The notes: a model not told the origin generated them from the sequence alone. Positions 2,431 through 51,656 are shown, counted from the stretch's first letter. The stretch is DNA of 64,000 nucleotides from a virus (IMGVR_UViG_3300033148_003376:1-64000); one strand, 5' to 3'. A program made the numbers and translations.

Positions 2431-2600
2431 CATACTCCCATGACTAAAGTCATGAGATTCCGGGTTCAAACAAGAGTTGCCAACAAAGTTGGTCTTATAC
2501 TCTCTAGTCCGAGAGAAGATGCCCCTTCTCTTTTCAAATTCATTCCAGCGTTCTGATCCCGGTCGTGCTTTGTTTGGCACCCCTGACATGTCCAAATACA
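2427..2600 (-). ncRNA. Predicted TnpB omegaRNA (reRNA) scaffold
   Basis: Right-end hairpin 2436-2457 and terminal TCAA; overlap with the tnpB 3' end is expected for the family; 5' boundary is approximate. Confidence 0.55.
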
Positions 2601-3611
2601 GTCTCTCAATGAAAGATTCTCGTTTATCCATCCACAGTAAGAACACGTCTTCGAAGATGGATAAAATTGATCTGCTTGCCAAAGTGTAGAACCGAGTTTG
2701 TTGCACATGTGTTGTAGAATCAAAACAAAGTCCGAGAAGCCAAGATCTGATATTTTTCTTCCCCACAGCTTTTTCATAGCACCGATATTCAAAGTTTCGA
2801 TGCAGATCACGTCGAAATCAAGCGCAAGTCGTCGAGTCAATTTGAAATGAAAATCTCGTCTTTGATTGACGATCTTTCGGTGAACTCTTGCAAAACTCAA
2901 GACAGCCTTTCGTCTGTTGTTCGATCCTTTCTTTTTGGATGATACTATTTTACTGGCTACTTTTACCCTATTTGACCCGATTTTGAAAAACTGTGGAGAT
3001 CGTATTTTTTCCCCTGTGCTAGACGTGAGAAATGTCTTGAGACCAAAATCAAACCCCTCAATTTTACCTGTAGAAGTTCGTTCAATCTTTGGTTTCTCTA
3101 CCCTGTCACAAGAGAAAAACAGATAAACATCTCCTAAAGTATCTCGTTTGATAGTCACCGTCTTAATTTTACCCTCTATTTCACGAGACTTCGAATATTT
3201 ATAAACCCTATTTCCAATGCGGATCTTATTATCATCTAGTAACTTGTATCCGCACTGTTTCAGAGTAAAGGATTTGTATTTGGACTTTTTCTTGAAAGAT
3301 GGTGGACGGTACCGTTTTTCACATCTTTTTAAACTTTTGAAAAATAAACGATAAGCACGGTCAACTCGTTCCACAATGTCTTGAATTGTTTGAGATCCTA
3401 AATCGTTCCAATACCGAAATCGCTTTATCTTTTTGTAACGGGTAAAATGTTTTTGAATTTCATACTTAGACGGGTACTTTCCAAACAATCTGTAATATGT
3501 TTTATGTAGGGCAATGAGATGGTTATAAATAGAAGATGCAAGGTTTATCTGTCGATGTAAACCTTTTATACTTTTTGACTTATAAAGTTTAAATTTAAAA
3601 GACTTTCTCAT
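2466..3611 (-). CDS. tnpB: RNA-guided endonuclease TnpB
   Basis: N-terminal FKFKLY; RuvC D (GFDFGLK), E (CIETLN), D (HDRDQNA); CxxC-CxxC zinc finger. Confidence 0.95.
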   Translation of the reverse strand: MRKSFKFKLYKSKSIKGLHRQINLASSIYNHLIALHKTYYRLFGKYPSKYEIQKHFTRYKKIKRFRYWNDLGSQTIQDIVERVDRAYRLFFKSLKRCEKRYRPPSFKKKSKYKSFTLKQCGYKLLDDNKIRIGNRVYKYSKSREIEGKIKTVTIKRDTLGDVYLFFSCDRVEKPKIERTSTGKIEGFDFGLKTFLTSSTGEKIRSPQFFKIGSNRVKVASKIVSSKKKGSNNRRKAVLSFARVHRKIVNQRRDFHFKLTRRLALDFDVICIETLNIGAMKKLWGRKISDLGFSDFVLILQHMCNKLGSTLWQADQFYPSSKTCSYCGWINENLSLRDCIWTCQGCQTKHDRDQNAGMNLKREGASSLGLESIRPTLLATLV

Positions 3612-3703
3612 CTACTCTTTTGACCATTTATGTATTTTTCAACGATCTTTTGCGATAATAGTCGTGTATCATGATAAATAATTTTACACAATAGATATTA
3701 TCC

Positions 3704-3760
3704 TTGACAAACACATTATAGTTTGTTATACTTAAAGAGTGGTCAAGGGTTTGAGTCTTT
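3704..3760 (+). promoter_or_regulatory. Early promoter cassette, copy 2
   Basis: TTGACA 3704, TATACT 3727, AAAGAGTGGTCA. Confidence 0.9.
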
Positions 3761-4641: not shown

Positions 4642-4666
4642 ACTCTTGTCGATTTCTCCTTATTAT

Positions 4667-4730
4667 CCTTGACAAACACACCATAGTTTGTTATACTTAA
4701 AGAGTGGTCAGGGTTTTCACTCTTTCTCGG
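4667..4730 (+). promoter_or_regulatory. Early promoter cassette, copy 3, with leader hairpin
   Basis: TTGACA 4669, TATACT 4692; stem AAAGAGTG...CACTCTTT. Confidence 0.9.
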
Positions 4731-5393: not shown

Positions 5394-5599
5394 GTGAATC
5401 TGATTACACCTGTAACAAATGCAAGGAACTAACAGCGAAATTAAATACGTTTCGTCATGTAGAGAATCCCATAAACTGTGCGTTATGTGCATTTGAGTGT
5501 CGTGGTAAATGTACACTGTATGACCTCAATATCCTTGAGTTCGATAAGGTTCACAAAAGGTGTAAATTACGCTCTATTTTCATAGTCGAAAAACCTTGA
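5390..5599 (+). CDS. Cys-rich hypothetical protein
   Basis: ATGA overlap with the previous gene; CxxC motifs. Confidence 0.5.
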   Translation: MSESDYTCNKCKELTAKLNTFRHVENPINCALCAFECRGKCTLYDLNILEFDKVHKRCKLRSIFIVEKP

Positions 5600-5640
5600 C
5601 AAACACACTCTAATTTGTTATACTTAAAGAGTGGTCAGGA
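5596..5640 (+). promoter_or_regulatory. Early promoter cassette, copy 4 (spacer allele B)
   Basis: TTGACA 5596, TATACT 5619, AAAGAGTGGTCAGG. Confidence 0.9.
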
Positions 5641-5663
5641 TTTGTATCAAGGAAAGGTATCAA

Positions 5664-8855: not shown

Positions 8856-8884
8856 TTGACATGCAAACCAGAGTTTGTTATAAT
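8856..8884 (+). promoter_or_regulatory. sigma70 promoter (variant of the cassette) upstream of the HTH gene
   Basis: TTGACA 8856, N17, TATAAT 8879; contains CAAAC-N4-GTTTG. Confidence 0.8.
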
Positions 8885-11670: not shown

Positions 11671-12082
11671 AAAACTCGTCAACCCTGCCAAACTGATAGG
11701 GATCAATCGACTCAACGAGACCGACTGTCCATCTTTCTCGGAAGACGATTTCATCATAGAATCAAATCCGACGCCGGAAGACATTGATTGCGCCGAAAAG
11801 GAAGGGAAGATCGTCCTGTGTTGTCGTCCATTTCCGAAAGACCTCGACGAGATCAATGCTAGTCTTGCTAATGTCACAGCTCTCAATCAAGCATGGCTTA
11901 TTGGATTTCTCGAAGGAAGAAACCTCAAACGATCGTCCTATATGATCGTGTACCTGCATGACGAGAAGTTCGAAAGTGAGAAAGTCGCCGAGGTCCTCAT
12001 CAAGCATGTTCTAGATGGCGAAAAAAGAGATCTCACCAAAGAAGCGACGAATTTGTTGCTCTGTACGACCAACGTTTACTGA
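11663..12082 (+). CDS. Hypothetical protein
   Basis: Packed ORF. Confidence 0.6.
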   Translation: MNKKLVNPAKLIGINRLNETDCPSFSEDDFIIESNPTPEDIDCAEKEGKIVLCCRPFPKDLDEINASLANVTALNQAWLIGFLEGRNLKRSSYMIVYLHDEKFESEKVAEVLIKHVLDGEKRDLTKEATNLLLCTTNVY

Positions 12083-12100
12083 TTCGAACCGGAGATATCG

Positions 12101-12316
12101 ATGGAACAAAGACTTCTTGAAAAAGGAGACGTGGTCCAATTGACACGCGAAGACGGGTTCTTTGGATGCTTCATGGTAGTAACAAAACCAAAATCATTTG
12201 GCGCACAAGGGTATGTCCTGATGCCTACCAAGAACGAGTTACCTTCGCAAGTGTTCTACAGAGCGTCATGGGACAATATGGAATACATCGGAAAATCTGT
12301 AATCATCGAAGACTAA
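12101..12316 (+). CDS. Hypothetical small beta-barrel protein
   Basis: GDVVQL...FMVVTKPKSFGAQGYV. Confidence 0.65.
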   Translation: MEQRLLEKGDVVQLTREDGFFGCFMVVTKPKSFGAQGYVLMPTKNELPSQVFYRASWDNMEYIGKSVIIED

Positions 12317-12345
12317 AGAAAAATCTAATTTAAAGTGAGGTCATT

Positions 12346-12726
12346 TTGGTAGTCAGATATTCAATGAAAAAAGCAGTTCGTGCGTTCTGTACCGAGTGTA
12401 TCTACGATCCGAATAACGGTGGGATGAGAAATGTCTCGGAATGTCCATCCACGTCATGTCCGCTCTGGGGATTTCGACCACTTTCGAAACTGTCTCCAGA
12501 GAAAGCGTACGACTTTGAAGGGTTTTCGATATTCGAAGGAAACATCGTCAGGGGTAAATGGGTCGAGTATGAAATGACAGACAAAGAGCGCGAGTCTCTC
12601 AAGCGTCGTCGTGAACATGGCGCAGAAGCGATCAAAGCTGCTATTGCCGCCAAGAACGCTAACGCGGAAAAAATTGGTGACGAATTGGCGGACGTCGACG
12701 ACGATGAAGCTGATTACGATTTTTGA
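12346..12726 (+). CDS. Putative zinc-binding phage protein
   Basis: KAVRAFCTEC...VSECPSTSCPLWGFRP. Confidence 0.65.
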   Translation: MVVRYSMKKAVRAFCTECIYDPNNGGMRNVSECPSTSCPLWGFRPLSKLSPEKAYDFEGFSIFEGNIVRGKWVEYEMTDKERESLKRRREHGAEAIKAAIAAKNANAEKIGDELADVDDDEADYDF

Positions 12727-12739
12727 AAAGGATACGATC

Positions 12740-13222
12740 ATGGGACTGTACTGCAACATGGGAACCAAGCCCGAAAACCTACGAGTCAAGACAACGGGCA
12801 AGGATTATCCGATCCAGATCGGCGAATATGAAATTTCCTGGGAAGACTTTGGAGAAATCGTCAAGTACGTCCTGACCAACACTGCCTTGGAACCGGACGA
12901 CCCGAGAATTAAGCTTGTCGATGAGATCAAGAGAATGGAAATCCGAGAAGGCACAAGTCCCTTTATAGGCCAACAACGATTTGAGATCACCTCGACCAAG
13001 GAGAACCGACCTCTAGTCGTCGCCAAAGGAAGCGTAGTCGAAGACGAAGTTGAACTGTGGCTAGAGAATGGTTTCTATGTCTGGTACGTCTATGACTCTC
13101 TGGTATATGAGAAATGGTTGACTGCCGACTTTCCTCCTGCCAAAACCAAAGAGGAAGCTCTGGAGTGGATAAAGCGTAAATTTCCACAGTACGTGGATGT
13201 CAGCCTCTCTAAAAGGAAGTAA
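12740..13222 (+). CDS. Hypothetical protein
   Basis: AAGGA RBS; YVLTNTALEPDDPR. Confidence 0.55.
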   Translation: MGLYCNMGTKPENLRVKTTGKDYPIQIGEYEISWEDFGEIVKYVLTNTALEPDDPRIKLVDEIKRMEIREGTSPFIGQQRFEITSTKENRPLVVAKGSVVEDEVELWLENGFYVWYVYDSLVYEKWLTADFPPAKTKEEALEWIKRKFPQYVDVSLSKRK

Positions 13223-13226
13223 TCTC

Positions 13227-13484
13227 ATGTGGACCATGCGGCTCAAATGGTGGTGGAACAAGGACAAATGTCCATGTTGTGGGACTTACCCACGTGGGAT
13301 CTGTGAGTGTTATGAGCTGGTAAGAGCAGGTAGTATCATCAAGGAAGGTATGGTTCTCGCACCGTACATGCCATTACAAGTCACAGAAACGAAACCGTTT
13401 CCAGAAAATCCTGGGTTCTGGTGGAGAATCAAGTTCCGCTGGCACGTCTTCTGGGTCACGAAAGTAAGGAGAGAGGAATGGTAA
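13227..13484 (+). CDS. Small protein with a major-capsid-like GxxxAPYxPL motif
   Basis: EGMVLAPYMPLQVT. Confidence 0.5.
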   Translation: MWTMRLKWWWNKDKCPCCGTYPRGICECYELVRAGSIIKEGMVLAPYMPLQVTETKPFPENPGFWWRIKFRWHVFWVTKVRREEW

Positions 13485-13768
13485 TGTCAGATCTCATAGC
13501 AAAGCAAGACATCGTCGGTGGGGGCAAACGTCATCTATCCCATTTCGTCCTGGAAGTTGGCAACAACGGTTGTGGTCCAGAGTCAACAGAACACTTCTTG
13601 GAAGACCTAAAGAAAGCTCATAACAAGGCAAAAAAGACATCCGACTGTATCTCGATGTCGTACGCGGGACTCTATGACGTCCTCGTGTATCCGAGCGGAG
13701 TATTTTCGTTGATTCCGACCAATCTGGAAAAGTTCGAGATCCCGGGCGTCAATGAAAACACTGTATAG
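13478..13768 (+). CDS. Hypothetical protein
   Basis: RBS; packed operon. Confidence 0.55.
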   Translation: MVMSDLIAKQDIVGGGKRHLSHFVLEVGNNGCGPESTEHFLEDLKKAHNKAKKTSDCISMSYAGLYDVLVYPSGVFSLIPTNLEKFEIPGVNENTV

Positions 13769-13788
13769 AAGATAACAAGGAGAAACCA

Positions 13789-14238
13789 ATGAACGAACCA
13801 AATGTTACTACAAGTTGTCCTGTGTGCGGTGGTCATTTATTGGGTGATGGATACACAGATGTGGTGCATTGTGAAAGAGTCGATTTGACTGGTCCTTCTT
13901 ATTGCTTCGAACCGGACGCTGGACCAATCCATTGCGGTCACAGAGTAGTGACTGTCTGTGACAAGTGTTTTAATGCGTCTTGCTGGCATGGGGAATTGAT
14001 GTGTGAGGAATCTCGCAGTGCAGGAACTGTGGAAAAGACTGTAGGCTGGTTAATGGAAAATAGCACCGAAGACCCGAGTTGGTATTCTGTCGAGAAATGT
14101 ATGCTTGTAACGGGTCAAGAACCTGAGTATCGAACAAAGTCATACGGTATACGTAAGCGATTTGGAATGACTGCCGAGGATGAAATTGTCAAGGATCTCG
14201 TTGCTGAGATTAACCGGTCTTCCAAGGAGGAAAGTTGA
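13789..14238 (+). CDS. Cys-rich protein with a capsid-like C-terminal helix
   Basis: CPVCG, CDKC; C-terminal KRFGMTAEDEIVKDLVAEINR. Confidence 0.6.
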   Translation: MNEPNVTTSCPVCGGHLLGDGYTDVVHCERVDLTGPSYCFEPDAGPIHCGHRVVTVCDKCFNASCWHGELMCEESRSAGTVEKTVGWLMENSTEDPSWYSVEKCMLVTGQEPEYRTKSYGIRKRFGMTAEDEIVKDLVAEINRSSKEES

Positions 14239-14310
14239 TTTGAATAGCTATGGTGTAGGACGACTACAAGGTCTCCAAGACGCAATAGACGTGTTGAAAG
14301 GATTCAAGAA

Positions 14311-14601
14311 ATGATACCAGACGCAGTAGGAATATTGATTTCAGAAAAAACCGGAAAATTTCATCCTATTTTGTTCAGGATTAGTCCACCACCTAGCGGA
14401 GGTCCAGACGGAACTCACAGACTCAAAAGTATAGGTCATCATACAGAAGGCTTCATGACAAAAGAAGAAGCAATTGCGGATATAGACACAAACGAGAAAA
14501 TCAAAGACGTTCATCGCATGGAAGAAGATCTCCTCTGGCAAAAGGAAGAATCACCAGCCGTGGTATGCTACGTAGACCACGATTTCAACATATTGTTTTG
14601 A
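14311..14601 (+). CDS. Hypothetical protein
   Basis: RLKSIGHHTEGF. Confidence 0.6.
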   Translation: MIPDAVGILISEKTGKFHPILFRISPPPSGGPDGTHRLKSIGHHTEGFMTKEEAIADIDTNEKIKDVHRMEEDLLWQKEESPAVVCYVDHDFNILF

Positions 14602-14609
14602 GGATTCAA

Positions 14610-14840
14610 ATGAACGAGATCAAGAAAGAACACATCACCGAATTCAAACGTTGTACAACAATGCTTGACAACCTGATAAAAAAGATCCGATCGTACCACC
14701 CAAATATCGAATACTATGTTGCCGATGGAGAAATAAATCTAATGAAAGGACCTTCTCACACAGGACCCAGAGACATAAAATGTCCAGAGAATGTGATCCG
14801 TAGTGTCAAGATATCGTACATGGACTGTGGTGCTTGGTGA
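14610..14840 (+). CDS. Hypothetical protein
   Basis: GAGGA RBS; ends DCGAW. Confidence 0.6.
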   Translation: MNEIKKEHITEFKRCTTMLDNLIKKIRSYHPNIEYYVADGEINLMKGPSHTGPRDIKCPENVIRSVKISYMDCGAW

Positions 14841-14856
14841 AGCAGAGGATGTTTGA

Positions 14857-15345
14857 ATGACTATCATCGCACATGAAGACGCGAAACGAATGGCTGCACA
14901 ACTCGGTTCACATCTGCATTTAGAGCTTGGTCGTAGGAGCGGTAAGACAAGTGGAATTATCCTCGGTCTCATCTCGGATCTCGTGACTTGTAAATGCAAG
15001 TCAATCACGTTTTCTTACGGACTCATGGATCGTTACAACCTTGGTCTCTTCAAAACCATTACAGAAAAACTCGGACTTGTCGGATTCAAATATACTAAAC
15101 ATCAGATTTGTATCGAAATCAAATACGTCTATAAAGGTCTTCAGGATCCAGACAACGAGGAATACTGGAAGACTCTCGGAGAAGCGTTGGCGGAAAACAT
15201 GTCGTCGTCCAAGCGGGTTAAAGAGTTGGAAGCGTTCTGTATTGATCACGGTCTTTGTCCGAAGTGTATGACTGTAAAAAGAGCTACAAATGAAGAAAGT
15301 ACATGTAAATGCGACAAGGATCGAAAGACGAATGAAAGCTCATGA
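14857..15345 (+). CDS. Small protein with a terminase-like Walker A motif
   Basis: LELGRRSGKT; CPKC. Confidence 0.5.
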   Translation: MTIIAHEDAKRMAAQLGSHLHLELGRRSGKTSGIILGLISDLVTCKCKSITFSYGLMDRYNLGLFKTITEKLGLVGFKYTKHQICIEIKYVYKGLQDPDNEEYWKTLGEALAENMSSSKRVKELEAFCIDHGLCPKCMTVKRATNEESTCKCDKDRKTNESS

Positions 15346-15557
15346 GATTCTCGGGTAAGGCTAAAATGCTACCAGAAATTGGAAAACTAATAATACTCAA
15401 AGGGAACCATCCATATTCAGGTAAAACTGCGGTGGTAAAAGAGCATAAATTTCGTATCCTTTCGGGTACGATGGGTGCCTTGATCCAATTAAATGAATTC
15501 AAACATGAATGCTTTGTGTTTGATGAGTCAGATTGGGAATATAAATATGTACGATGA
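15342..15557 (+). CDS. Hypothetical protein
   Basis: ATGA overlap with the previous gene. Confidence 0.5.
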   Translation: MRFSGKAKMLPEIGKLIILKGNHPYSGKTAVVKEHKFRILSGTMGALIQLNEFKHECFVFDESDWEYKYVR

Positions 15558-15684
15558 ACCGGCTGGAAAAGTTCTTCTAATTGCTTGGTCTGGTGGATGT
15601 GACAGCACTTATCTTCTGAAGTGTTGGTCTAGGTACGCCAATGTTGAACGTCCATTGATTATTGAAGGAAATCGAATATATTGA
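15547..15684 (+). pseudogene. Truncated PP-loop (QueC-like) N-terminal fragment
   Basis: KVLLIAWSGGCDSTYLL in a 45-aa ORF. Confidence 0.5.
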
Positions 15685-15725
15685 TTCGAAACCGCGTAGC
15701 TTGACGGATCCAAAGGAAGTGACCA

Positions 15726-16091
15726 ATGACGATGAGACGAAGGATGTTCAGAGAAATCAAGACCACGTGGACAGCGTTACCATATGAACATCGTGGTCAT
15801 TTCAAATTGATCAAGAGCGGTCATCGTCGAAATGAGGTCGGTTGTGTACATTCATCGAATCAGGAATGGTCTCCATTAACTTTCTTAAATTTTCCTATCC
15901 CTGTCAGCATCGTTATTGACTTCGGATGGACATGTCTATGTAGACACGAGAACTCAAACAAGGTCAGGATGACTCGAACCGTGATTCCGCGATGTGTCAA
16001 ATGTCATACCCATATGGGAGTCAGAATCAAACTTGGAAAACCAGATTCTAATACCTCGATAACATCGATCGATATAAAACCGTTTAAATAG
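15726..16091 (+). CDS. Hypothetical protein
   Basis: RBS; Cys motifs. Confidence 0.5.
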   Translation: MTMRRRMFREIKTTWTALPYEHRGHFKLIKSGHRRNEVGCVHSSNQEWSPLTFLNFPIPVSIVIDFGWTCLCRHENSNKVRMTRTVIPRCVKCHTHMGVRIKLGKPDSNTSITSIDIKPFK

Positions 16092-16099
16092 GATCAAAC

Positions 16100-16684
16100 A
16101 TGGCCGAATTTCCTCTGATCACACCACGTCTAGGTGGTCTCACTGTCATCCAGGAAAGCGACGTATACCCTCTTCACGGCGACGACATGATGCTGGTAGT
16201 GTGTCGAGAACTCTACGAGCTGATCAAGGAGTACGATGACGTCAGTGAGGCATTCAAGGAGTTCAACCGACGTAAGGACGAGAAAATCAAGAATATGATG
16301 GAACAAATAGACAAGACATTCAATCCGGAAAATGGACGAGTGTTTAATCCAGGGTTTGGACTCTCGCTCGTTGATCTTATTCCATCTACGAAACCACTTG
16401 GAAACACCGTAGACAATCTTCCCATGACAACCCACAATGTCGTCAAAGCCGTATCCATGGGTGTTCAGAGAGACGACAGGGTATACATCGCCGATCCTAT
16501 CATGGTAGGAGTTCATTGTCAGTGCGGACGTCTAATTCCAACTCCACCATACGGTCAAAAGATCGTAATGTGTAAATACTGTAGTACCGTATACGGATAT
16601 GTTGGTGAAGGAGAAAACTGGAAGCCGATGACGAAGGAAATGTTTGCTAAACTGACGGGAAAGGATGTCTACGATGACACGTGA
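16100..16684 (+). CDS. Hypothetical zinc-ribbon protein
   Basis: CQCG...CKYC. Confidence 0.6.
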   Translation: MAEFPLITPRLGGLTVIQESDVYPLHGDDMMLVVCRELYELIKEYDDVSEAFKEFNRRKDEKIKNMMEQIDKTFNPENGRVFNPGFGLSLVDLIPSTKPLGNTVDNLPMTTHNVVKAVSMGVQRDDRVYIADPIMVGVHCQCGRLIPTPPYGQKIVMCKYCSTVYGYVGEGENWKPMTKEMFAKLTGKDVYDDT

Positions 16685-16827
16685 AATGAACACATATCTT
16701 TTCAGCATGGAAAAGCTCACTGAAGGTGGATACATCGTCCCGGCGCACGACATAGAAGATGCCAAATATTTTCTTTACAAGTGGTTCCAAAAAATGAACC
16801 AGGGTCAAAGAGATCCGACGTGGGCAA

Positions 16828-17340
16828 GTGATGTCAATAACCGAGAAGCTTCATGAACCGACGTTCGCGTTCGAGAAGTTTGATCTCAAGATCGACCTCG
16901 ATGGAGACGTGGTATCTATCGACGACGCGATACCAGCAAAGTTCTACATCATCACCAGTTCTCGTCGACCGATAGAATCTATACCAAGAAATATCCTCGA
17001 CAAAGCACTTCAAGATGCGTCCGATCGCTGTAGAGAAAAACGACTCCTTATCCACATGAGACGCATATCGTATACTCCGATGCTATCAGACGTAGCCGGA
17101 TTAGTCAGTAGAATCTATGAAGTCACATCGATAATAGGAGAATCTCGAAATTTCAAAGCTGATATCACGATCCTTGACACTCCTGATGGCGAAAGTCTCA
17201 GAGTGATGAAAAGAGCGGGTACCAAATTCGAATTACACGCGCTATTTCAAGAGTACAATGACAAAAATGGTGAACTAGAAAAACTCGAAATCAAAGAGTT
17301 ACGTGTCTTGCGAATAGAGGAAAACAATAATGACGTATGA
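16828..17340 (+). CDS. Putative inactive prohead-protease-like protein
   Basis: ADITILDTPDGESLRVMKRAG resembles the gp21-family ILDTPxG motif; no SSRG. Confidence 0.4.
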   Translation: MMSITEKLHEPTFAFEKFDLKIDLDGDVVSIDDAIPAKFYIITSSRRPIESIPRNILDKALQDASDRCREKRLLIHMRRISYTPMLSDVAGLVSRIYEVTSIIGESRNFKADITILDTPDGESLRVMKRAGTKFELHALFQEYNDKNGELEKLEIKELRVLRIEENNNDV

Positions 17341-17608
17341 GATTGTATCCAATGAAGAACGGGTTCAACGATTCAGAAGATGGAGACAGTATGTCAAGAA
17401 ATTCCCTCGTCGGTATAAGATCGAATTGTTCAGGTGTGGAGACCGAGTATTTGCAGCATTGTTGGAGAAAATCAGAGATTCCCTGTTCTGGCAAGACCCT
17501 CGATATCACACTGTGCTCAGGACAAATTGTGGAACAATGGTGGACTGGTCCATAGTGGAACACCTTCCACCGTGGAATATGCATAACGGAAACAGCGAAT
17601 TTTACTGA
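17330..17608 (+). CDS. Hypothetical protein
   Basis: GAGGA RBS. Confidence 0.5.
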   Translation: MTYEIVSNEERVQRFRRWRQYVKKFPRRYKIELFRCGDRVFAALLEKIRDSLFWQDPRYHTVLRTNCGTMVDWSIVEHLPPWNMHNGNSEFY

Positions 17609-17610
17609 AT

Positions 17611-17883
17611 TTGGAGAAACATGGCATGACCGAAAAAGACCAAGTCGAACATCCGTCGCATTACAATAAAGGAATAGAGGTATGGGACTTCACCACAAGT
17701 CATAATATGGGATTTCTCGATGGAAATATTGTGAAATACATATCAAGATTTCGTCACAAGAACGGTCTCCAAGATCTCTACAAAGCGAGACAATATCTTG
17801 ACAAACTCATAGAGGTAGAAGAGACGAGGATCGGAGAAAACCTCATCGCACAAAACAATGAAAGTGAAAAAGGAACACCATGA
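17611..17883 (+). CDS. DUF3310 (SaV-like) protein
   Basis: VEHPSHY...GNIVKYISRFRHKNGLQDLYKARQYL. Confidence 0.9.
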   Translation: MEKHGMTEKDQVEHPSHYNKGIEVWDFTTSHNMGFLDGNIVKYISRFRHKNGLQDLYKARQYLDKLIEVEETRIGENLIAQNNESEKGTP

Positions 17884-18317
17884 CAAAGATGAGTCTCGTT
17901 CTTGAACTCAAGGTTGAAGATCGACACGATCATACTGAAGTCGTTTACGTTCCAATCGGTTGGACAGACGATACAAGGAAACGAAGATACGAATTCTACG
18001 CCACTCCTTCGGATGTCGTCATCAATGGATCCGTTCTAAATCGTTATAAACTTTTACCACTCAAATTCGTCAGACCTCCACAAGAAATCGAACGAAACAG
18101 AGTCGAATTTGCCGATGGAGCCTTTCAGACTTCGGAGAAGAAACCAGAACTAAATATCGACATTCTCGTATGGGACTCCAAATACGAACGCGAAGCAATC
18201 GGTCAACTAATCCAAAGTGGCGAGCATTCATGGTGGGGTTGTACGGATGAAGACGGAGAAGGCTTCAACTGCGCTTTGTTTGAAGAACGGATCATCATGT
18301 GGAAACCTGTAGAGTAA
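17880..18317 (+). CDS. Hypothetical protein
   Basis: Last gene of the + arm. Confidence 0.55.
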   Translation: MTKMSLVLELKVEDRHDHTEVVYVPIGWTDDTRKRRYEFYATPSDVVINGSVLNRYKLLPLKFVRPPQEIERNRVEFADGAFQTSEKKPELNIDILVWDSKYEREAIGQLIQSGEHSWWGCTDEDGEGFNCALFEERIIMWKPVE

Positions 18318-18371
18318 TACCCTGGCACAGATCTTGAACGAATATCCCTCAGAGAAATCATGTGGTGGGAT

Positions 18372-18399
18372 ATGGTGTCGGACTGATCACCGACACCAT
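18372..18399. terminator. Hairpin between convergent early operons
   Basis: ATGGTGTCGG-N8-CCGACACCAT. Confidence 0.65.
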
Positions 18400-18405
18400 C
18401 TCAAT

Positions 18406-18969
18406 TCAGCTCTCCTGACAGATCTTCAGAATCCGTTTCAATTGGTCCTTGGTGAGAGATCCGGTTGACTCGACGTAGAAATCGTCATCTCCTTTGGACT
18501 TGATCTTGATGTCGTTCATGTGGAATTCGACATAGGATATACACGTATATGCATGATAACATTTGAACTCAGATACGATTCGTTTTTTCAGCTTCTCGGT
18601 CTCCAGACGACATCGTTCCGTTTTATCTCGTGCTTTCTTATCAGCAACCGATTCTGCCAACAAATGCTCGAATGCATCATGGAACTTTTTTGCCACATTC
18701 TTTGTCTCGAAAGTGCCCCATGTCCGAATACTGGGATACGAGTACGAAAACTTCAGCCGGTATCCGGTCCAGTTGAAAAGGTCGCCAGTCTGATTCCACA
18801 TGATATACCGATCGATCCCTTCCCGGTGAATGGAGGATTGATTGAATCTGGATTTGTTACTGACTTCGTACAGCTTCTTTCCGGCGATCTTGTTCATCTC
18901 AGCACAGAGTTTGTCCCAGTTCGACTTGTCCTCGACGATCTCCCGGATCTTTCCCTCGCTCTCTCGCAT
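18406..18969 (-). CDS. Hypothetical early protein
   Basis: 187 aa; operon on - strand. Confidence 0.7.
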   Translation of the reverse strand: MRESEGKIREIVEDKSNWDKLCAEMNKIAGKKLYEVSNKSRFNQSSIHREGIDRYIMWNQTGDLFNWTGYRLKFSYSYPSIRTWGTFETKNVAKKFHDAFEHLLAESVADKKARDKTERCRLETEKLKKRIVSEFKCYHAYTCISYVEFHMNDIKIKSKGDDDFYVESTGSLTKDQLKRILKICQES

Positions 18970-19921: not shown

Positions 19922-19985
19922 CCGAGAAAGAGTGAAAACCCTGACCACTCTTTAAGTATAACAAACTATGGTGTGTTTGTCAAGG
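19922..19985 (-). promoter_or_regulatory. Early promoter cassette, copy 5
   Basis: Exact reverse complement of 4667-4730. Confidence 0.9.
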
Positions 19986-20468: not shown

Positions 20469-20487
20469 CGTTTCTCCCGATGTTTCT

Positions 20488-20535
20488 CCCTGACCACTCT
20501 TTAAGTATAACAAACTATGGTGTGTTTGTCAAGGA
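20488..20535 (-). promoter_or_regulatory. Early promoter cassette, copy 6
   Basis: Reverse complement of TTGACA (20527-20532) and TATACT (20504-20509). Confidence 0.9.
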
Positions 20536-21273: not shown

Positions 21274-21427
21274 GATTATCCTCGATGAACCATTTCAATC
21301 CTGGGTTTGACACATTGGACAGACACCTGAGAGTTCCTGACAAAATGACTGGGGTTGAGAACCGCGGCAACAAAAACGACAACCAACATGATTTTGAGAG
21401 TCTTCATTGTTTCTCCGAGGAAGTGAG

Positions 21428-21477
21428 AACCCTGACCACTCTTTAAGTATAACAAATTAGAGTGTGTTTGTCAAGGA
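21428..21477 (-). promoter_or_regulatory. Early promoter cassette, copy 7 (spacer allele B)
   Basis: Reverse complement of TTGACA (21469-21474) and TATACT (21446-21451). Confidence 0.9.
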
Positions 21478-22837: not shown

Positions 22838-24072
22838 AACAATACGCATACGATTTAAAAAATCTCGAAGACGAGTTGTCGAAGAGCTACGCTGGATTTG
22901 TCGAATCAAATGACGACGGGACCAGGACCAGTCTGTTCGATAGTATTCAAGATCTCGCGATAGCGATCCTAAAAGTCGGAAAATATCGCAACACAGATCT
23001 TGATAAAGATCAGATGTCGTATGACTACGCGTGTTCTTTATTCGAACGCATCGTTAGTGGAGACTGGATTCCCGAAATCCGAAGTGATAGATTCCCATGG
23101 CAAAAATACGTATCGAAAAACATCTTGGATACCATACATCCAAAAAAATCAAAAACCGACTCGGTCAATGAGCTTGTAAGTGATCTCGAATACATTCTCA
23201 ACACAACAAGTGCATCGATCTTCGATTCCATACCAGAAACACCGGATCAAAACCTCAAACGACAAGACCTTGCATATGCTCTGTATGATGCGATCAAGAT
23301 ACACTATTCAGACAAAGAAATACGAAGACTCTTTGGCATCAGTATCGATCTTGTGTTAGACAAAAACAAATGGACTATGCTCAAGAATTATCCACAAGAC
23401 ATTAAAGATTTCGTCATCGTACTCGTGTGCATGGCCAAGCGATTAATATTAGATAACAACATCAATCGAGGTAGAGATATCCACCGTGGAGATCTTTCAA
23501 AGATCATGTCGAGTGTGACTCGTTCGTCTATTTTCCTATCAGCGATCGTAAATCCGAACCGACGTAAATTCGTACAGAAAGAATTATTACTCGCACTCGA
23601 TCTCGCATCGATCTACAGATTGGCTTACGCTTTAGGTGGAAAACTCATACGCATTCCGTCTATAGACATGCTCGACACGCTTGTGGGTACGTCTGTTATT
23701 CTCGCCAAGCGTATTCTTGAAGGCAAGAAATTAGACCGGAATACACGTCAGAAGGTAAGCAGAGACTACGGTATCATTTTCAGACAAGAGCCAAACCTGA
23801 CTATCCAGGAATTTTGCTCAAAAGCGATCGAAGTCTATGAGACGTTCCAAACCGCTGAAGATATCAAGCCTATCATGGATTCGATTCTGAAATCTGCTAA
23901 ATCCCTTGAGATAGCAGCGTCAAAAATCTGTGAAAATCCAGAAATGGAAGGCTACAGAGAAATACTATCAGACTATTCTACGGTGATTGAGTCACTCCTT
24001 AGAGTGGGAGCGTCGATCGAAATAATCCATCAAAAGATCCAGAAAAAGGCTTTCAATGAACAGCAAGATTAA
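22834..24072 (+). CDS. Putative transcription factor (sigma-region-2-like N-terminus, Mor-like GGxxIRIP)
   Basis: 412 aa, helical; LAYALGGKLIRIPS. Confidence 0.4.
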   Translation: MKQYAYDLKNLEDELSKSYAGFVESNDDGTRTSLFDSIQDLAIAILKVGKYRNTDLDKDQMSYDYACSLFERIVSGDWIPEIRSDRFPWQKYVSKNILDTIHPKKSKTDSVNELVSDLEYILNTTSASIFDSIPETPDQNLKRQDLAYALYDAIKIHYSDKEIRRLFGISIDLVLDKNKWTMLKNYPQDIKDFVIVLVCMAKRLILDNNINRGRDIHRGDLSKIMSSVTRSSIFLSAIVNPNRRKFVQKELLLALDLASIYRLAYALGGKLIRIPSIDMLDTLVGTSVILAKRILEGKKLDRNTRQKVSRDYGIIFRQEPNLTIQEFCSKAIEVYETFQTAEDIKPIMDSILKSAKSLEIAASKICENPEMEGYREILSDYSTVIESLLRVGASIEIIHQKIQKKAFNEQQD

Positions 24073-24937
24073 CGACAAGATTTTTGATTTTTACAGGTTC
24101 GCCTTTGAACGACAATCAATATGGCACAGACGAAATGTGGAAAAAATGACATATCCCTGGACAAACGATGAGATCCTACAGCGATATCAAATATGCAATG
24201 TCTTCAGACAGCTAGATAAAGGCACTCAGTATATTATCAATAAGGTCTTGAAACAGAACATCGACAATGAATCGAAGATCTTCAATGCGATCATTTATAG
24301 ACTGTTCAACCTACATGGACTATTCGAGCACATCTTTTACGGTCTCGTCAATCCAAAGACATACACGTTTATACATTACGAGAAAGAACTAGAAGAGAAA
24401 AAGAAAAAAGGACAACAGCTATTTCACTGTGCTTACCTCGTGAATCAACACCCATACAATCGTTTCTATAGACCTCGTGAGAAGCACATTCAGATCCTAC
24501 TCATACTCGAATATGTTACACGAGGTCTCAAAGGACTTGCAGAGTACATATCCAAGTCAAATCCCACCGACTGTATCAAAGGATTGACGTCTGTTCCAAA
24601 GATCGGCGACTTCCTCGGTGGTCAAATTCTTCTCGACCTATCATATGCCGGAATTCCACCGTTCAACGACGATTTTTGTATCGTCGGTCCAGGTGCAACA
24701 TATTCATTACAATTCATGTTCGATACGACTACTATAGTTCAGGGGAAATTACAGGAATTATGTAAACGTGTATGTGAAGAACAAACATGTCTCGCTGACA
24801 TTGGAAACTGGAATGAGATCGTACCAGGCGAGTTCGATCAATTGAGTCTTGGAAATATCGAACATTCTCTTGGAGCGTACAGTAGATATCTCAAACTCAA
24901 GACGGGTACAGGGAAAGGACGACGTTACAAAAGATGA
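24056..24937 (+). CDS. 5-hmdU DNA kinase-like (aGPT-Pplase1) DNA hypermodification protein
   Basis: ERQSIWHRR...PWTNDEILQRYQICNVFRQLDKGTQY...IGDFLGGQILLDL...VGPGA. Confidence 0.8.
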   Translation: MNSKINDKIFDFYRFAFERQSIWHRRNVEKMTYPWTNDEILQRYQICNVFRQLDKGTQYIINKVLKQNIDNESKIFNAIIYRLFNLHGLFEHIFYGLVNPKTYTFIHYEKELEEKKKKGQQLFHCAYLVNQHPYNRFYRPREKHIQILLILEYVTRGLKGLAEYISKSNPTDCIKGLTSVPKIGDFLGGQILLDLSYAGIPPFNDDFCIVGPGATYSLQFMFDTTTIVQGKLQELCKRVCEEQTCLADIGNWNEIVPGEFDQLSLGNIEHSLGAYSRYLKLKTGTGKGRRYKR

Positions 24938-25600: not shown

Positions 25601-26191
25601 ATGGCATTCGTCACCACGAAAGTCGCATCAGAGAAACTCGGTGTACATTCCAATACCCTTAGACTATGGGATAAACTCGGGAAGATCAAAACGATCCGGA
25701 CACCGGGTAATAACAGATTGTACGATCTGAGTTCTTTGGAATCCACCCAGAAGAAAAAGATCATCTATATCCGTGTCAGTTCAAGGAACCAAAAAGATGA
25801 CCTGCGAAATCAGATTGAATACGTTAGAAAACGATATCCAAATCACGAGTATATCGAAGACATTGGCTCCGGTCTCAACTTCAAACGTAAAGGACTTAAA
25901 GTCCTATTGGAATCAATCATGTCTGGAGATGTCGAAGAAGTGGTCGTCGCTCACAAAGACAGATTGTGTCGATTTGGATTTGAACTCATTGAACAGATTG
26001 CAAGTCAATACAATACAAGAATCGTGGTACTCAGCGAGAGTAAACTCTCTCCTCAAGAAGAAATCGTTCAAGACCTTCTTTCCATCATCCATGTTTTCTC
26101 CTGTAGGCTTTATGGTCTCAGAAGATACAGTCGTGAGATCAAAGAAGATAAAAATTTATCCAAAAAAGGAAAATCAAAGTCTTCTAAATAG
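25601..26191 (+). CDS. tnpA: IS607 transposase (MerR-HTH plus serine recombinase)
   Basis: LGVHSNTLRLWD...YIRVSS..QKDDL..Q...EDIGSGLNFKR...KDRLCRFG. Confidence 0.95.
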   Translation: MAFVTTKVASEKLGVHSNTLRLWDKLGKIKTIRTPGNNRLYDLSSLESTQKKKIIYIRVSSRNQKDDLRNQIEYVRKRYPNHEYIEDIGSGLNFKRKGLKVLLESIMSGDVEEVVVAHKDRLCRFGFELIEQIASQYNTRIVVLSESKLSPQEEIVQDLLSIIHVFSCRLYGLRRYSREIKEDKNLSKKGKSKSSK

Positions 26192-27212
26192 GTATCTGGG
26201 ACTATCCCGCTATTGGTTCAATCAAGCGATTGAATATCTGAGACAACCAGACACAAAGGCGTATCTTCCAGAGGTGAGAAAGATTCAAAAGAACGAACAT
26301 CCTATTTGGGCACTTGACTGTCCACAACGCGTCCGTGAACACGCAATAAGCGATGCATGTAAAGCTGTGAAGAATGCAAAATCAAAATATCATTCTGGAA
26401 ACGGGTTTCAAAGAGTATCATTTCGTTCAAAAAAGAATCCAAGTCAGTATTTTGGTTTTGATCTCGTAAGTCTTAATGATAGTTTCATTTTCAAACAAAA
26501 GAAATACAAAGGAGAATTCTATGCATCAGAATCATTCAGACATGAGTTAGAGGGAATAAGAATCAAAAGAGAAAACGGAAGATGGTTTCTTATCATTCCA
26601 CAAAGACGACATATCAAAGTACCTGAGAACCAAAGACTGAAGTATGTCGCACTCGATCCAGGGATAAGAACTTTCACGTCATTTTTCTCTCCAGAAGTCT
26701 TTGGTAAAATAGGCGAAAGCGACTTCAGACAAATCTTCAGACTCTGTCTTTCGATGGATCGCTTGATTTCGAAGACGAGTAAGGTGCGGTGTAAGACTAG
26801 ACGCAGAATGAAAAAGGCGTTGCAACGAATCCGATGGAGAATCAGAAATCTAATAGACGAACTTCACCGAAAGACAGCGCATTTCCTTGTTACTCGCTTC
26901 GATGTCGTTTTCATACCGACATTTGAGACGTCTGAAATGGTCACAACACTGAGGTCCAAGACAGCAAGGAGCATGCTCAATTTTGCTCATTACAGATTCA
27001 AACAGTTCCTGAAGACAAAGGGCGAAGAATACTCGTGTGAAGTCGTTGAAGTCAGTGAAGCCTATACATCAAGGACGTGTTCGTTTTGTGGAAAGGTACA
27101 CAATATTGGTAGCAAGAAAACTCTTCGCTGTCGATGTGGTGTATCGGTGGATCGAGATCTCAACGGCGCACGTGGTATTTTACTACGTGCTTTGATGGTT
27201 ACATCCCATTAG
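25773..27212 (+). CDS. tnpB: IS607 TnpB with rearranged (pro-Fanzor-type) RuvC
   Basis: KIKIYP; ALDPGIRTF; FIPTF; VSEAYTSRTC; DRDLNGARGI; start uncertain, ORF overlaps tnpA. Confidence 0.9.
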   Translation: MSVQGTKKMTCEIRLNTLENDIQITSISKTLAPVSTSNVKDLKSYWNQSCLEMSKKWSSLTKTDCVDLDLNSLNRLQVNTIQESWYSARVNSLLKKKSFKTFFPSSMFSPVGFMVSEDTVVRSKKIKIYPKKENQSLLNRYLGLSRYWFNQAIEYLRQPDTKAYLPEVRKIQKNEHPIWALDCPQRVREHAISDACKAVKNAKSKYHSGNGFQRVSFRSKKNPSQYFGFDLVSLNDSFIFKQKKYKGEFYASESFRHELEGIRIKRENGRWFLIIPQRRHIKVPENQRLKYVALDPGIRTFTSFFSPEVFGKIGESDFRQIFRLCLSMDRLISKTSKVRCKTRRRMKKALQRIRWRIRNLIDELHRKTAHFLVTRFDVVFIPTFETSEMVTTLRSKTARSMLNFAHYRFKQFLKTKGEEYSCEVVEVSEAYTSRTCSFCGKVHNIGSKKTLRCRCGVSVDRDLNGARGILLRALMVTSH

Positions 27213-27789: not shown

Positions 27790-27828
27790 GGGAGGTGACA
27801 ATGATGGTACATGTCACCTCCCTTTAAA
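27790..27828 (+). terminator. Putative intrinsic terminator
   Basis: GGGAGGTGACA-N11-TGTCACCTCCC followed by TTT. Confidence 0.65.
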
Positions 27829-27840
27829 ATAGGAAATACT

Positions 27841-28347
27841 ATGGAAAAACTGACAATCAAAGACTATGAAGATCTGGGAACTCCTGAAGATATCGGAAAG
27901 GCACTCGACGATGCAACCAAGGCTATTGAATGTTGGTCTGAAGGATTTGATCAGATTAAAGATATCCAACCTCGATCACCTGACGAAAAACGAATACTCC
28001 AGGAAATAATAGATATACTCTACAGTTGTCCACCCCAAGACGCATTGGACGATCTCAGTGTAGTCAAGAATATAAAAAAGAAACAATCACATCTGAAACC
28101 AAAACGCGAAATTGTGTCTACACATCGGTGTACAGACATGGGTTTGTCGTTCAAATATATTCCAGATGATAATATATTCTCCAAAACGTGTCCGTTATGT
28201 ACGGAAGATTTTCAGAAAGAACAAGATGTCCAGTGTACTGGAACTCCATTTCAAGGAGTCTCACATGAAGGTGAACCCGAGATTCATTTTGAAGTAAATC
28301 TTGTTCATCGCACATGTCGTATCGAACATGACAAAAATTCTAAATAA
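27841..28347 (+). CDS. Hypothetical protein with Cys/His cluster
   Basis: CPLC...HRTC. Confidence 0.55.
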   Translation: MEKLTIKDYEDLGTPEDIGKALDDATKAIECWSEGFDQIKDIQPRSPDEKRILQEIIDILYSCPPQDALDDLSVVKNIKKKQSHLKPKREIVSTHRCTDMGLSFKYIPDDNIFSKTCPLCTEDFQKEQDVQCTGTPFQGVSHEGEPEIHFEVNLVHRTCRIEHDKNSK

Positions 28348-31308: not shown

Positions 31309-31529
31309 AAAAGACGTATGAAATACATACGGATGACGTGATACTTGCATCCACACAGGTTGCTGTGGGCACACTTTGTCATACAATACAACAAGTAACA
31401 AAAAATTCTGCTCGACTCCCATATCCAGATGCGTGGGAATCAATACAAACTATGGCAGACAAGTTGAAACACGATATTTGTGAACTCGTAGAACTCACTA
31501 AGTCATCAAAGGAGATAACTCTAAGATGA
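31305..31529 (+). CDS. Hypothetical protein
   Basis: ATGA overlaps at both ends. Confidence 0.5.
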   Translation: MKKTYEIHTDDVILASTQVAVGTLCHTIQQVTKNSARLPYPDAWESIQTMADKLKHDICELVELTKSSKEITLR

Positions 31530-32764
31530 AATTCGACAACGACGATAAACGGATCCTGAATCAGTTCTTCACGTCATCTGACGAGAGGGATACTATCTAT
31601 GCGGCGAAAGAAACCCTTCCGTCAAGTATTCTCGCTGGTCTCATCGGGAAAGCCTCACGCGCGAAAGAGACCTTCCGTGAAATCTTCTTGAAAGAATACA
31701 TGAAAACGAATTGCAATCTTCATGTCGACATAGATCACGGTCTCTCAAGTACCCTCCAAATCATGAAAGACGACTCTCTCAATTTCCTCGACAAGTGGAA
31801 GAACCACAACTCCCTTCGAGACGTTCCCCACGTCGCTGTGTTCTGTGACGATCTTTCGATATTACAAACGAAGGTCTGGGAACATGAACCGGTCGCAGAA
31901 TACCAGGAAAAGTCTACCAGGTATCGCCCATTCAAAGCAGACAACGTCTACCTTCCAGGTGTATCGGATACCCTTCTCGATCGTATTGGTCCTCTACAGG
32001 ACGATCTCGTGACGCTCTACAACGAGATCTACGAAGCTACAAAGAAACGAGATGTCGCGAGATATCTTCTCCCGGTAGGCTCACGAACCGCGATGGTCTG
32101 TTTCGCGTCGATGAGATCGTTGGAAAGGATTGTCGGTAGGATGTACGACTATCCGACGATGGAATCCCAAGCCATGGCCATGGCCATCGAGGGACACATT
32201 CAACAAGTTCTTCCGACGTTCAAAGCTCTTCGGGGCGTCGAAGACTACTCGTTCTTGAACTCTCCTGTAATACACTTCGTAGGTCAAGGACCCCAGTGTC
32301 AAGTAGCAGATGTTATCAAGATGGAAAATGCCGAAGTCTACCAGATACTAGGTATGATCGACATTGGAGCACATCGAGATGTCCAACGACACCGGAGTTT
32401 GATCCAGGATCTACCCGACTATCGAGCGTTCTACGGATACGACAAGCTCATCTTCGACTTCATACCGATCATGTTGCAGACGAGATACCGAGACTGTATG
32501 GAACGCGGGATCATTCTCTTCCATGATGTTTACAAGGAACTATGGGATAACAAGATAGAACGCATCGGTGAAAGTCAATACTGTGCTCTCCTCGGTCACA
32601 TGACGAGATTCCGACTCATCACCGACCTGAACCGATGGAACTACGCTCATGATCTCCGCACGGGATCACCAAACCAAAATGCGACAAGTGAGAAAACGGT
32701 CCATATCAGCTATTCAACGTGGTTCCATCGCGCTCAACGACAAATAGAGGCTCTCCATGTGTAA
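31526..32764 (+). CDS. thyX: Flavin-dependent thymidylate synthase, tandem-domain ThyX
   Basis: QEKSTRY, DVARYLLP, DIGAHRDVQRHRS, HDLRT...HISY. Confidence 0.8.
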   Translation: MKFDNDDKRILNQFFTSSDERDTIYAAKETLPSSILAGLIGKASRAKETFREIFLKEYMKTNCNLHVDIDHGLSSTLQIMKDDSLNFLDKWKNHNSLRDVPHVAVFCDDLSILQTKVWEHEPVAEYQEKSTRYRPFKADNVYLPGVSDTLLDRIGPLQDDLVTLYNEIYEATKKRDVARYLLPVGSRTAMVCFASMRSLERIVGRMYDYPTMESQAMAMAIEGHIQQVLPTFKALRGVEDYSFLNSPVIHFVGQGPQCQVADVIKMENAEVYQILGMIDIGAHRDVQRHRSLIQDLPDYRAFYGYDKLIFDFIPIMLQTRYRDCMERGIILFHDVYKELWDNKIERIGESQYCALLGHMTRFRLITDLNRWNYAHDLRTGSPNQNATSEKTVHISYSTWFHRAQRQIEALHV

Positions 32765-34018: not shown

Positions 34019-34199
34019 TCGTAACCTGATTATCTGGTTATATCGCTCCGCTGTATAGCTTGATATTGCGCTTTGGTCAAATTCGAATGGTTTTTAGCAG
34101 CACTATAACTTGTTGTTTTGTTTCGTAATGCAGAAAACCTTTAAGTTTTTCTTGTTATTTGTCGAGTAGTATTATATGAGACAAACAACGGAGGGGAAA

Positions 34200-49092: not shown

Positions 49093-49304
49093 TTAGTCAC
49101 CTTCTTTTTGGATCGTTTATGGTCACAATCCTTCGCGTTCAGAAAATATGCATGAAAGATCTCACAGAAATAGACTTTCTTTTTATTTTCGATGACGAAT
49201 GATAGAAACTTGCAGTCATCGCAGTTTTTGAGTTTTTTCTTATACTTACGTGGAGCTGTAGTGATAGTAATAGACATGTAAATTCTCGTGTGCAAGAAGT
49301 GAAT

Positions 49305-49625
49305 TTAGCTCTTCTTGATAAACCTGATTCGTCCATCTTTCGGTACTGCATTTGCAGCCTTGAATATAATTGTAGTCGCCGTTGCTGATACTTCATAGTC
49401 GAACTCAACGCCATCGTGTTGACCAGCCCCGTTGTATTCAACCTGGAGTTCATCTGTCGACGAATCATACGTTTCACCATTCGGGAGTGTAAACGTAAGG
49501 TGATCAGCCGAATATCCGGAACCAGATACACCAATTGCCGTCGTGACAAGAATGGTCTTGTCATAGTGGGTAATAGTGGTGAGAACCGCTGTAGGTATTC
49601 CATTGACTGTCTGTGTTACTTTCAT
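49305..49625 (-). CDS. Small virion protein
   Basis: FTLPNGETY...LQVEYNG...DY. Confidence 0.65.
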   Translation of the reverse strand: MKVTQTVNGIPTAVLTTITHYDKTILVTTAIGVSGSGYSADHLTFTLPNGETYDSSTDELQVEYNGAGQHDGVEFDYEVSATATTIIFKAANAVPKDGRIRFIKKS

Positions 49626-51655: not shown

Positions 51656-51656
51656 G

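Follow-up and report, generated by a model that had tools for sequence, protein, structure and literature searches.

Among the cues to which bacterial defences respond, few are commoner than capsid proteins and prohead proteases, and satellites hijack these same proteins. The Gol peptide of T4 gp23 is the trigger of Lit. Satellite capsid-redirecting proteins (P4 Sid, SaPI CpmA/CpmB, and SaPIbov5 Ccm, which is homologous to the major capsid protein, MCP) bind inter-capsomer regions or copy the MCP, and by doing so alter or block head assembly. It is common for a pseudoenzyme to regulate its active paralog or to compete with it. We know of no phage with separate copies of conserved capsid interface motifs. 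The subject here is a set of three orphan genes on the + strand, between positions 13197 and 17340 of a viral DNA of 64,000 nucleotides (IMGVR_UViG_3300033148_003376:1-64000; this whole stretch is the window). This window makes up the first 64 kb of one contig, 103,593 bp in length, for which CheckV estimates a completeness of 57%. Sequence comparison gives solid grounds for tracing the three genes to head-morphogenesis genes of the T4 gp23/gp21 type, from which they were put together or have descended. What their proteins do is less certain; the explanation favoured below, with a probability of about 0.45, is that they act as non-productive mimics of head-assembly surfaces.

That a small early protein or a capsid protein can be a defence cue is known from CapRel-SJ46, which is triggered by both the MCP and Gp54 (PMC13728456). 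A preliminary description of the region had noticed five short peptide strings, ascribed them to capsid, large terminase, a QueC PP-loop enzyme and prohead protease, and proposed that their ORFs (open reading frames) form an early system of decoys for immune sensors. The five strings are indeed present, in + strand ORFs that start at or near where it had placed them. These ORFs belong to a tightly packed array, in which + strand ORFs tile the flagged region with small gaps. By codon usage the flagged ORFs score best in their own frame, and there is a Shine-Dalgarno-like motif upstream of most.

Capsid and protease pieces in three orphan genes

The late genes of the phage are on the minus strand, mostly beyond the window but on the same contig as the small ORFs. 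The resident MCP, whose 378-aa body is at L001:13949-15085 (minus), belongs to Pfam Gp23 (PF07068; 30.8 bits against a cut-off of 24.4), and the 559-aa protease-scaffold protein (L001:15777-17456, minus) matches phrog_207 with E 5e-20. Since the family profile of the MCP matches the T4 gp23 structures 5VF3, 6UZC and 7VS5 (E ~3e-8), and that of the protease matches the T4 gp21 structure 5JBL (E 1.5e-5), the T4-type reference frame is, on these profile matches, the right one for capsid and protease.

Among 1.84 billion representative proteins we found 475 relatives of the MCP. The hidden Markov model (HMM) for the MCP was made from 131 homologs, with the phage's own MCP left out, and was run with all filters off. 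The protease-domain HMM comes from the loci of 60 relatives, and HMMs for 27 head and tail protein families were built from 80 related loci. The ORFs searched were all 834 of at least 40 aa in the 103.6-kb genome, and 3000 shuffles per ORF served as control.

With the MCP model the resident gene is recovered as two exons, the body (E 3e-124) and a separate 119-aa N-terminal ORF (E 1e-28). Two small ORFs follow. Amino acids 117-144 of ORF 13789 (13789-14238, +; 149 aa) align with HMM positions 268-295 at E 2.6e-7, and amino acids 46-72 of ORF 13197 (13227-13484, +, is its 85-aa form; from the start at 13197 it is 95 aa) align with positions 414-440 at E 3e-4, or 3.9e-5 with a second HMM. The third-ranked match other than the MCP is noise (E 0.34). 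Not one of 3000 shuffles reached the real score for either ORF, or for the protease-like ORF 16828 considered below. Pairwise comparison agrees: when twelve small ORFs were compared by blastp with the phage's own TerL (large terminase), MCP, protease and portal, amino acids 117-143 of ORF 13789 matched MCP 179-205 (14/27 identical, E 5e-6) and amino acids 45-72 of ORF 13197 matched MCP 324-351 (12/28 identical, E 2e-4). By the same program 43 relatives' MCPs are matched by ORF 13789 and 14 by ORF 13197. In a six-frame search of the genome the two best non-self MCP matches are these same two pieces, which are 0.8 kb apart, and a six-frame search with the MCP HMM, reading through stops, revealed no further pieces. 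The curated PF07068, phrog_207 and phrog_38 models, run on the whole genome, find the real genes only. The gp23-type capsid motifs of the preliminary description are thus borne out, by an HMM lacking the resident MCP and by the shuffles.

Both host proteins of these pieces are rich in cysteine. In ORF 13789 a zinc-ribbon-like N-terminal part and a central domain (aa 52-99) of a kind common to small phage proteins (phrog_10857; P0002, 56% identity) precede a C-terminal MCP-derived piece of 27 aa (nt 14137-14220, KSYGIRKRFGMTAEDEIVKDLVAEINR), after which there are 6 aa and the stop. In ORF 13227 the order is a Trp-rich N-terminus, a CPCC...CEC cysteine cluster, the MCP piece, again 27 aa (nt 13332-13412, core APYMPLQVTETKPFPENP, with the strand/P-loop motif APYMPL..VT), and a Trp/Arg-rich tail. 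This tail, which follows an NP, is not MCP-like, as 370 of 2000 shuffles reach its score against the MCP C-terminus. Complete A, P and I domains (at least 350 aa) are absent; HMM positions 268-295 and 414-440 are all that is present, and the flanks are unrelated. Judged by this composition, ORFs 13227 and 13789 are not capsid proteins. Nor do they look like remnants of a decayed MCP pseudogene, as the C-terminal piece is upstream of the middle piece, the remainder of ORF 13789 belongs to another family and the six-frame search yields no more pieces. An antisense ORF at 14115-14285 that matches an ORF of a relative was also set aside, the match being to the antisense strand of that relative's MCP motif.

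The two motifs represented are the two most conserved of the MCP family. On alignment through the HMM to T4 gp23, the ORF 13789 graft falls at residues 274-300, the short acidic P-domain helix and the first turns of the spine helix, and the ORF 13197 graft at about 440-467, a P-domain strand and the P loop. The same alignment reproduces the residue numbers given for T4 (A268, A275, D285, D287, G292, V306/V307, A455 and T457; PMC9546572). At the T4 head's quasi-threefold axes, neighbouring capsomers are joined by P-loop contacts and by charge interactions between the short helix and P-domain strands; mutations affecting head length cluster at 268-287 and 457-461 (A275, D285, D287; T457, R460, G461), and gp31-bypass mutations are at 292/306/307 and 455 (G292, A455) (PMC9546572). 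From the alignment and these described contacts, the grafts correspond to the two partners of the quasi-threefold inter-capsomer contact.

The source of the grafts can be approached through the DNA. The ORF 13789 graft is identical to P0009 at 20 of 27 positions and has 74-77% identity with relative G001's MCP; with the resident MCP it shares 14 of 27 (52%). Where it departs from the consensus, it does so at the variable columns of the family. Comparison with the resident MCP shows saturation at the third position of codons (identities of 10/27 and 9/28). Against the best relative's MCP, DNA identity is 74%, with 52% at position 3 and ~85% at positions 1 and 2, and blastn detects a 63-nt, 76% match between the ORF 13789 graft and a relative's MCP gene (E 1e-4). 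This detectable DNA similarity, with its codon-position pattern, argues for descent rather than convergence: so judged, the homology of the grafts to a capsid gene of this family is by descent, and they are neither convergent nor recent copies of the resident gene. Their source may be a relative not yet sampled.

The third orphan gene encodes 169 aa (16831-17340, +), collinear from Met1 with the whole gp21-type prohead protease domain, of which it is a degenerate version. In the search with the protease-domain HMM the real protease comes first and ORF 16828-17340 next, at E 8e-4. By blastp it is 30% identical over 105 aa to the protease of relative L009 (E 1.4e-5), it matches 15 relatives in all, and it matches residues 102-156 of the phage's own protease at E 0.003. 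The resemblance to gp21 that had been proposed therefore holds, on the HMM, the relatives and the absence of any equal among 3000 shuffles. The ORF retains the ILDTPxG..L....RAG block. A 31-aa gap takes out the loop with the catalytic Ser (SSR), that is, the LFVSSRA.G.FKG segment. [The first Ser of the SSR loop aligns with an Ala position in the 5JBL chain, which we take to be a catalytic-residue mutant.] As for the catalytic His, one alignment places LIH against TIGH and the other has a Tyr against the His column; the second conserved SH reads SR. The C-terminal scaffold tail (~350 aa) is absent, the ORF ending ~35 aa past the protease core, where relatives run to 450-560 aa. Identity to the family is 20-26%, compared with 50-60% among family members themselves in this domain, and a frame of 169 codons is hard to keep open at such divergence, which argues for selection. 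A pairwise match of the protease to ORF 61188-61574 had no profile backing and was treated as chance.

A fourth head-gene piece is possible. Amino acids 15-44 of a 178-aa ORF at 27811-28347 (+) resemble the Y.ELGxPE.I..AL scaffold repeat, with E 1e-3 for the full-length protease-scaffold HMM and 47% identity over 32 aa to a relative by blastp (E 2e-4, composition-corrected). Confidence in it is lower because the source region is coiled-coil-like. Among the 27 head and tail families scanned, pieces in small ORFs are found for the MCP and the protease-scaffold protein only.

Other members of the array and their setting

Two further members of the proposed set do not stand. One, a 162-aa ORF at 14857-15345 (+), had been credited with the Walker A motif of the large terminase on account of GRRSGKT, and has no terminase match. 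GRRSGKT reads as GxxxGKT, one residue short of GxxxxGK[ST], and the Walker A of the phage's own large terminase (TerL; L002:11463-12974, minus; phrog_38, E 7e-102) is a different one, PPRHGKS. The score of the ORF with an HMM for TerL from 15 relatives, -3.5 bits, is equalled or bettered by 2040 of 3000 shuffles; Pfam, PHROG and NCBIfam have no match to it, and blastp against the phage's own TerL finds nothing. Its neighbours in the ESM Atlas are mixed P-loop NTPases with sub-threshold TM scores of at most 0.41, obtained on a low-confidence model, and the ORF may be an N-terminal P-loop NTPase-like fragment. [A small gene that does derive from terminase is in the late region: directly downstream of TerL, a 190-aa ORF (L002:10875-11447, minus; genome 94875-95447) is a paralog, now diverged, of the TerL ATPase domain, with E 2e-10 for the TerL HMM and 1e-5 for phrog_4758.]

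The other, with SGGCDS, is of 45 aa (15547-15684, +; 63 aa from the start at 15493), and its codon score of 0.03 is a weak coding signal. What had been taken for a QueC PP-loop is a generic motif of 13 aa. With Pfam ATP_bind_3 it scores 14.3 bits where the cut-off is 27, and with phrog_1550 E is 0.0035, so that it stays below every cut-off; the PP-loop domain (~200 aa) is not present in the ORF, and the QueC model has no match there. Nothing else in the genome matches this ORF as well as the PAPS_reduct protein of the phage itself (34176-35087; 10/13 identical, E 0.16), and the ORF is possibly a scrap of a gene for a PP-loop enzyme, which is non-structural. Such an enzyme is neither a structural protein nor a known defence trigger. 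The expectations of the preliminary description have therefore fared differently: there are profile hits to gp23 (two ORFs) and gp21 (one ORF) and none to gp17/terminase, and alignment to the phage's own head genes ties ORFs 13789 and 13197 to the MCP and ORF 16828 to the protease, and no ORF to TerL.

Upstream of the array, at 8856-8884 (+), is a sigma70-type promoter match, TTGACA-17-TATAAT, with 12 of 12 consensus positions and the TG of an extended -10. Near-consensus sigma70-type promoters at 4669-4697 and 5596-5624 (both +) are inside copies of a 64-nt repeat, of which there are seven, four + (1044-1107, 3697-3760, 4662-4725 and 5589-5652) and three - (19931-19985, 20480-20534 and 21422-21476), carrying TTGACA-17-TATACT promoters. 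It is these near-consensus upstream promoters that lead us to call the arm early, and early expression of the array is plausible on that ground. [The promoters of the repeat are read as divergent early promoters, not as the boundary of an invertible segment.] ORFs 13227 and 13789 have a Shine-Dalgarno-like motif upstream, and there is none before 16831. Ten ORFs searched against Pfam, PHROGs, NCBIfam and PADLOC gave no capsid, terminase, protease, defence or anti-defence family above cut-off. Between the two capsid-graft genes, ORF 13481-13768 (+) has a sub-threshold likeness to the repeat of the Ltp superinfection-exclusion lipoprotein (PF07553, 17.3 bits against a cut-off of 23.2, E 0.005; phrog_4980, E 0.087). 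An Rfam scan of 12000-18500 found nothing.

Some MCP genes of this group are themselves interrupted. In the resident gene a group I intron (L001:15132-15374, minus; genome 79132-79374; Rfam RF00028, 99.3 bits, E 3e-26) separates the N-terminal exon, an ORF of 119 aa (genome 79344-79703), from the 378-aa body, and in relative L015 the same site is occupied by an intron too (115 bits). In relative L150 (2416-4855) the MCP gene has a 486-nt gap at HMM position 284 and, upstream of the exon beginning near position 82, a GIY-YIG-like ORF. In relative L153 (1-1133) a homing-endonuclease-like ORF with repeated PDGF/PEGF modules ends just before the APYMPL exon. The introns or homing endonuclease genes of relatives are thus at positions 284 and 424, inside the two graft motifs. 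A segment of the MCP insertion domain (HMM ~140-236) recurs in other structural ORFs of several relatives (G004, the contig of L017, at 49243-49506, 51620-51886 and 64082-64369; L054-L059 and L068, ~0.9 kb downstream of the MCP), which is unlike the present grafts.

Elsewhere in the late region are the portal gene (L002:5766-7370, minus) and a 667-aa ORF (L001:10531-12534, minus; genome 74531-76534), of which amino acids 1-117 and 551-616 match a ~190-aa family of the head/tail module and the insert of ~430 aa, with HNH-endonuclase and helicase-like PHROG matches, has the look of an intein or an in-frame mobile insertion. The window also holds two TnpB/Cas12f-like genes, together with genes for a 5-hmdU DNA kinase, a Thy1-like protein, a PAPS-reductase-like PP-loop protein and a tyrosine-recombinase-like ORF; the coordinates of the set are 2466-3611 (-), 25773-27212 (+), 24056-24937 (+), 31526-32764 (+), 34176-35087 (+) and 35030-35698 (+). 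The kinase, Thy1-like and PAPS-reductase-like proteins suggest hypermodified thymidine. When the region was compared by megablast with 50,697 phage records no match emerged, so that there is no close relative among them.

Mimicry, mosaic scrap and decoys

On the explanation preferred here, the array would be transcribed by host RNA polymerase ahead of the late head genes, and its proteins would be kept for presenting head-assembly surfaces, without the ability to assemble or to cleave. The mimics would bind the normal binders of those surfaces, and the dead protease domain could occupy protease docking or dimer sites. If mimicry is what they do, the partner is somewhat more probably the head proteins, with a dominant-negative or timing effect on a competing phage, on a satellite or on the phage's own assembly; a host sensor of head proteins would be the less favoured partner. 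The full proposal, that non-assembling copies of the acidic helix and P loop and a dead gp21-like protease, made from host-type promoters, titrate a sensor, a satellite or a competing phage, is rather improbable as a whole.

Several results weigh against mimicry. The coincidence with an interface is in part a matter of detection, since the most conserved motifs alone stay detectable in any scrap. Both capsid pieces are nearer to relatives' MCPs (up to 77% at the amino acid and 74% at the nucleotide level) than to the resident one, and a piece captured recently from an unsampled relative would show this codon-position pattern even if no selection acted on it. An AlphaFold2 model of the pseudo-protease, from a 9-row alignment, reached a pLDDT (the model's own confidence score) of 37 and was not used. 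In a search of 5.8 billion proteins ORFs 13789, 16828 and 13197 found only themselves, plus one partial match to the central Cys domain of 13789; the whole contigs of five relatives (537 kb) have no such pieces; and IMG/VR scans for the coding patterns KRFG..AEDE and APYMPL..VT returned MCP genes, a family of membrane proteins that is unrelated, and a single GC-rich match due to chance. Peptide patterns of ORFs 13789 and 13197 gave no match in IMG/VR. With the ORFs orphan there is no support from conservation or dN/dS, and the trait is not recurrent.

The strongest rival, with a substantial but less than even chance, is that the pieces are neutral mosaic scrap. Illegitimate recombination, or recombination stimulated by homing endonucleases, would have put bits of the protease-MCP cassette into a hyperplastic early arm; the bits would happen to be in frame in orphan ORFs, and any function of these would be independent of their similarity to head genes. 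The closeness to relatives' MCPs fits capture of foreign DNA at least as well as it fits mimicry of the phage's own protein, and the absence of the ORFs from relatives is what scrap would give. The genome is rich in mobile elements (the MCP group I intron, the intein-like insertion in a head/tail gene, the two TnpB genes and the paralog of the TerL N-domain beside TerL), relatives' MCP genes carry introns or homing endonuclease genes inside both motifs, there is a possible scrap of a non-structural PP-loop gene in the same array, and the detection bias would account for conserved motifs alone being visible. However, scrap should not be so selective: head-assembly families alone are represented among the 27. 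Nor does it readily explain why the pseudo-protease frame of 169 codons is intact despite ~75% divergence, or why every piece is in frame with an ORF whose codon signal is coding-like. The conserved columns of the family are kept in the grafts, yet three neighbouring conserved ones that come after the second motif's NP, L352, A357 and A359, are lost. It is the restriction to head-assembly genes as source, the long open frame of the pseudo-protease, the coding-like signal and the retention of conserved blocks that favour a function.

The decoy proposal of the preliminary description is a sub-case of mimicry, in which the proteins would be early decoys of host capsid or protease sensors (CapRel-, Lit-, CBASS- or Avs-like); taken as a whole it is unlikely, and no result here points to it in particular. 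Head proteins are established triggers, the MCP for CapRel and the prohead protease for type I CBASS (PMC13728456), conserved epitopes are what a sensor should target, and the pieces, which have sigma70-type promoters upstream, are the MCP's most conserved motifs. Against this, a peptide that copies a trigger could equally set the sensor off early, the proposed set lacks its terminase member, and the ORFs match no defence or anti-defence family. A capsid-epitope decoy is also without precedent in a 2026 review of counter-defence (PMC13728456), and since no capsid-derived decoy is described there, the functional reading would be new.

Chance resemblance of short peptides has very little to recommend it, and for ORF 13789 is very unlikely: the pieces are only 27 aa, the curated Pfam and PHROG models are silent and the weaker two matches have E ~1e-3 to 1e-4, but the capsid scores were reached with the resident MCP excluded and the next ORF is far behind, no shuffle equalled them, 43, 14 and 15 relatives are matched by blastp, one match extends to the DNA, and the top two non-self MCP matches are close neighbours in a genome whose relatives have zero comparable pieces in 537 kb.

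If the proposal of mimics that titrate a sensor, satellite or competing phage is true, these would be the first separately encoded capsid-epitope decoys. Functional grafts would represent a new counter-strategy and point to the epitopes T4 gp23 274-300 and 440-467, as short peptides that can be tested. If instead they are scrap, they provide a clean example of orphan early genes assembled from pieces of essential genes of related phages. There is a warning here also, in that short structural-gene motifs in small ORFs can be true homology without an implied role.

Comparison with known systems

The capsid pieces are like T4 gp23/gp24 (PF07068; 5VF3, 6UZC, 7VS5) in that they align with the two most conserved motifs of these proteins and keep the conserved residues. 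The difference is one of extent. T4 gp24, the vertex protein, is a paralog of full length and becomes part of the shell, whereas here 27 aa are carried on unrelated Cys-rich proteins and no HK97 fold is possible. Similarly, ORF 16831 is collinear with the protease domain of T4 gp21 (5JBL), keeps its core block and is comparable with catalytically dead paralogs (pseudoenzymes) in general. Unlike T4 gp21, it has neither the Ser loop nor the scaffold/anchoring tail, its place is probably in an early arm far from the head operon, and it has no known relatives.

The redirecting proteins, which satellites encode, have a helper phage as their target. In our case the genes belong to the large phage itself, the pieces are tiny and any effect on head assembly is hypothetical. 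The Gol and CapRel triggers are in the real capsid protein or in unrelated small proteins, in contrast to the separately encoded pieces described here; Gol, which we take to be T4 gp23 93-122, is moreover another part of gp23 than that represented by the grafts. To our knowledge no separately encoded capsid-derived peptide acts as a defence antagonist.

With ordinary phage mosaicism the three genes share their orphan status, the sharp boundaries of the grafts, a foreign-like origin and a setting in which mobile elements are abundant. They differ from it in that sources confined to head assembly and a long pseudo-protease frame that is still intact are not what random scrap predicts.

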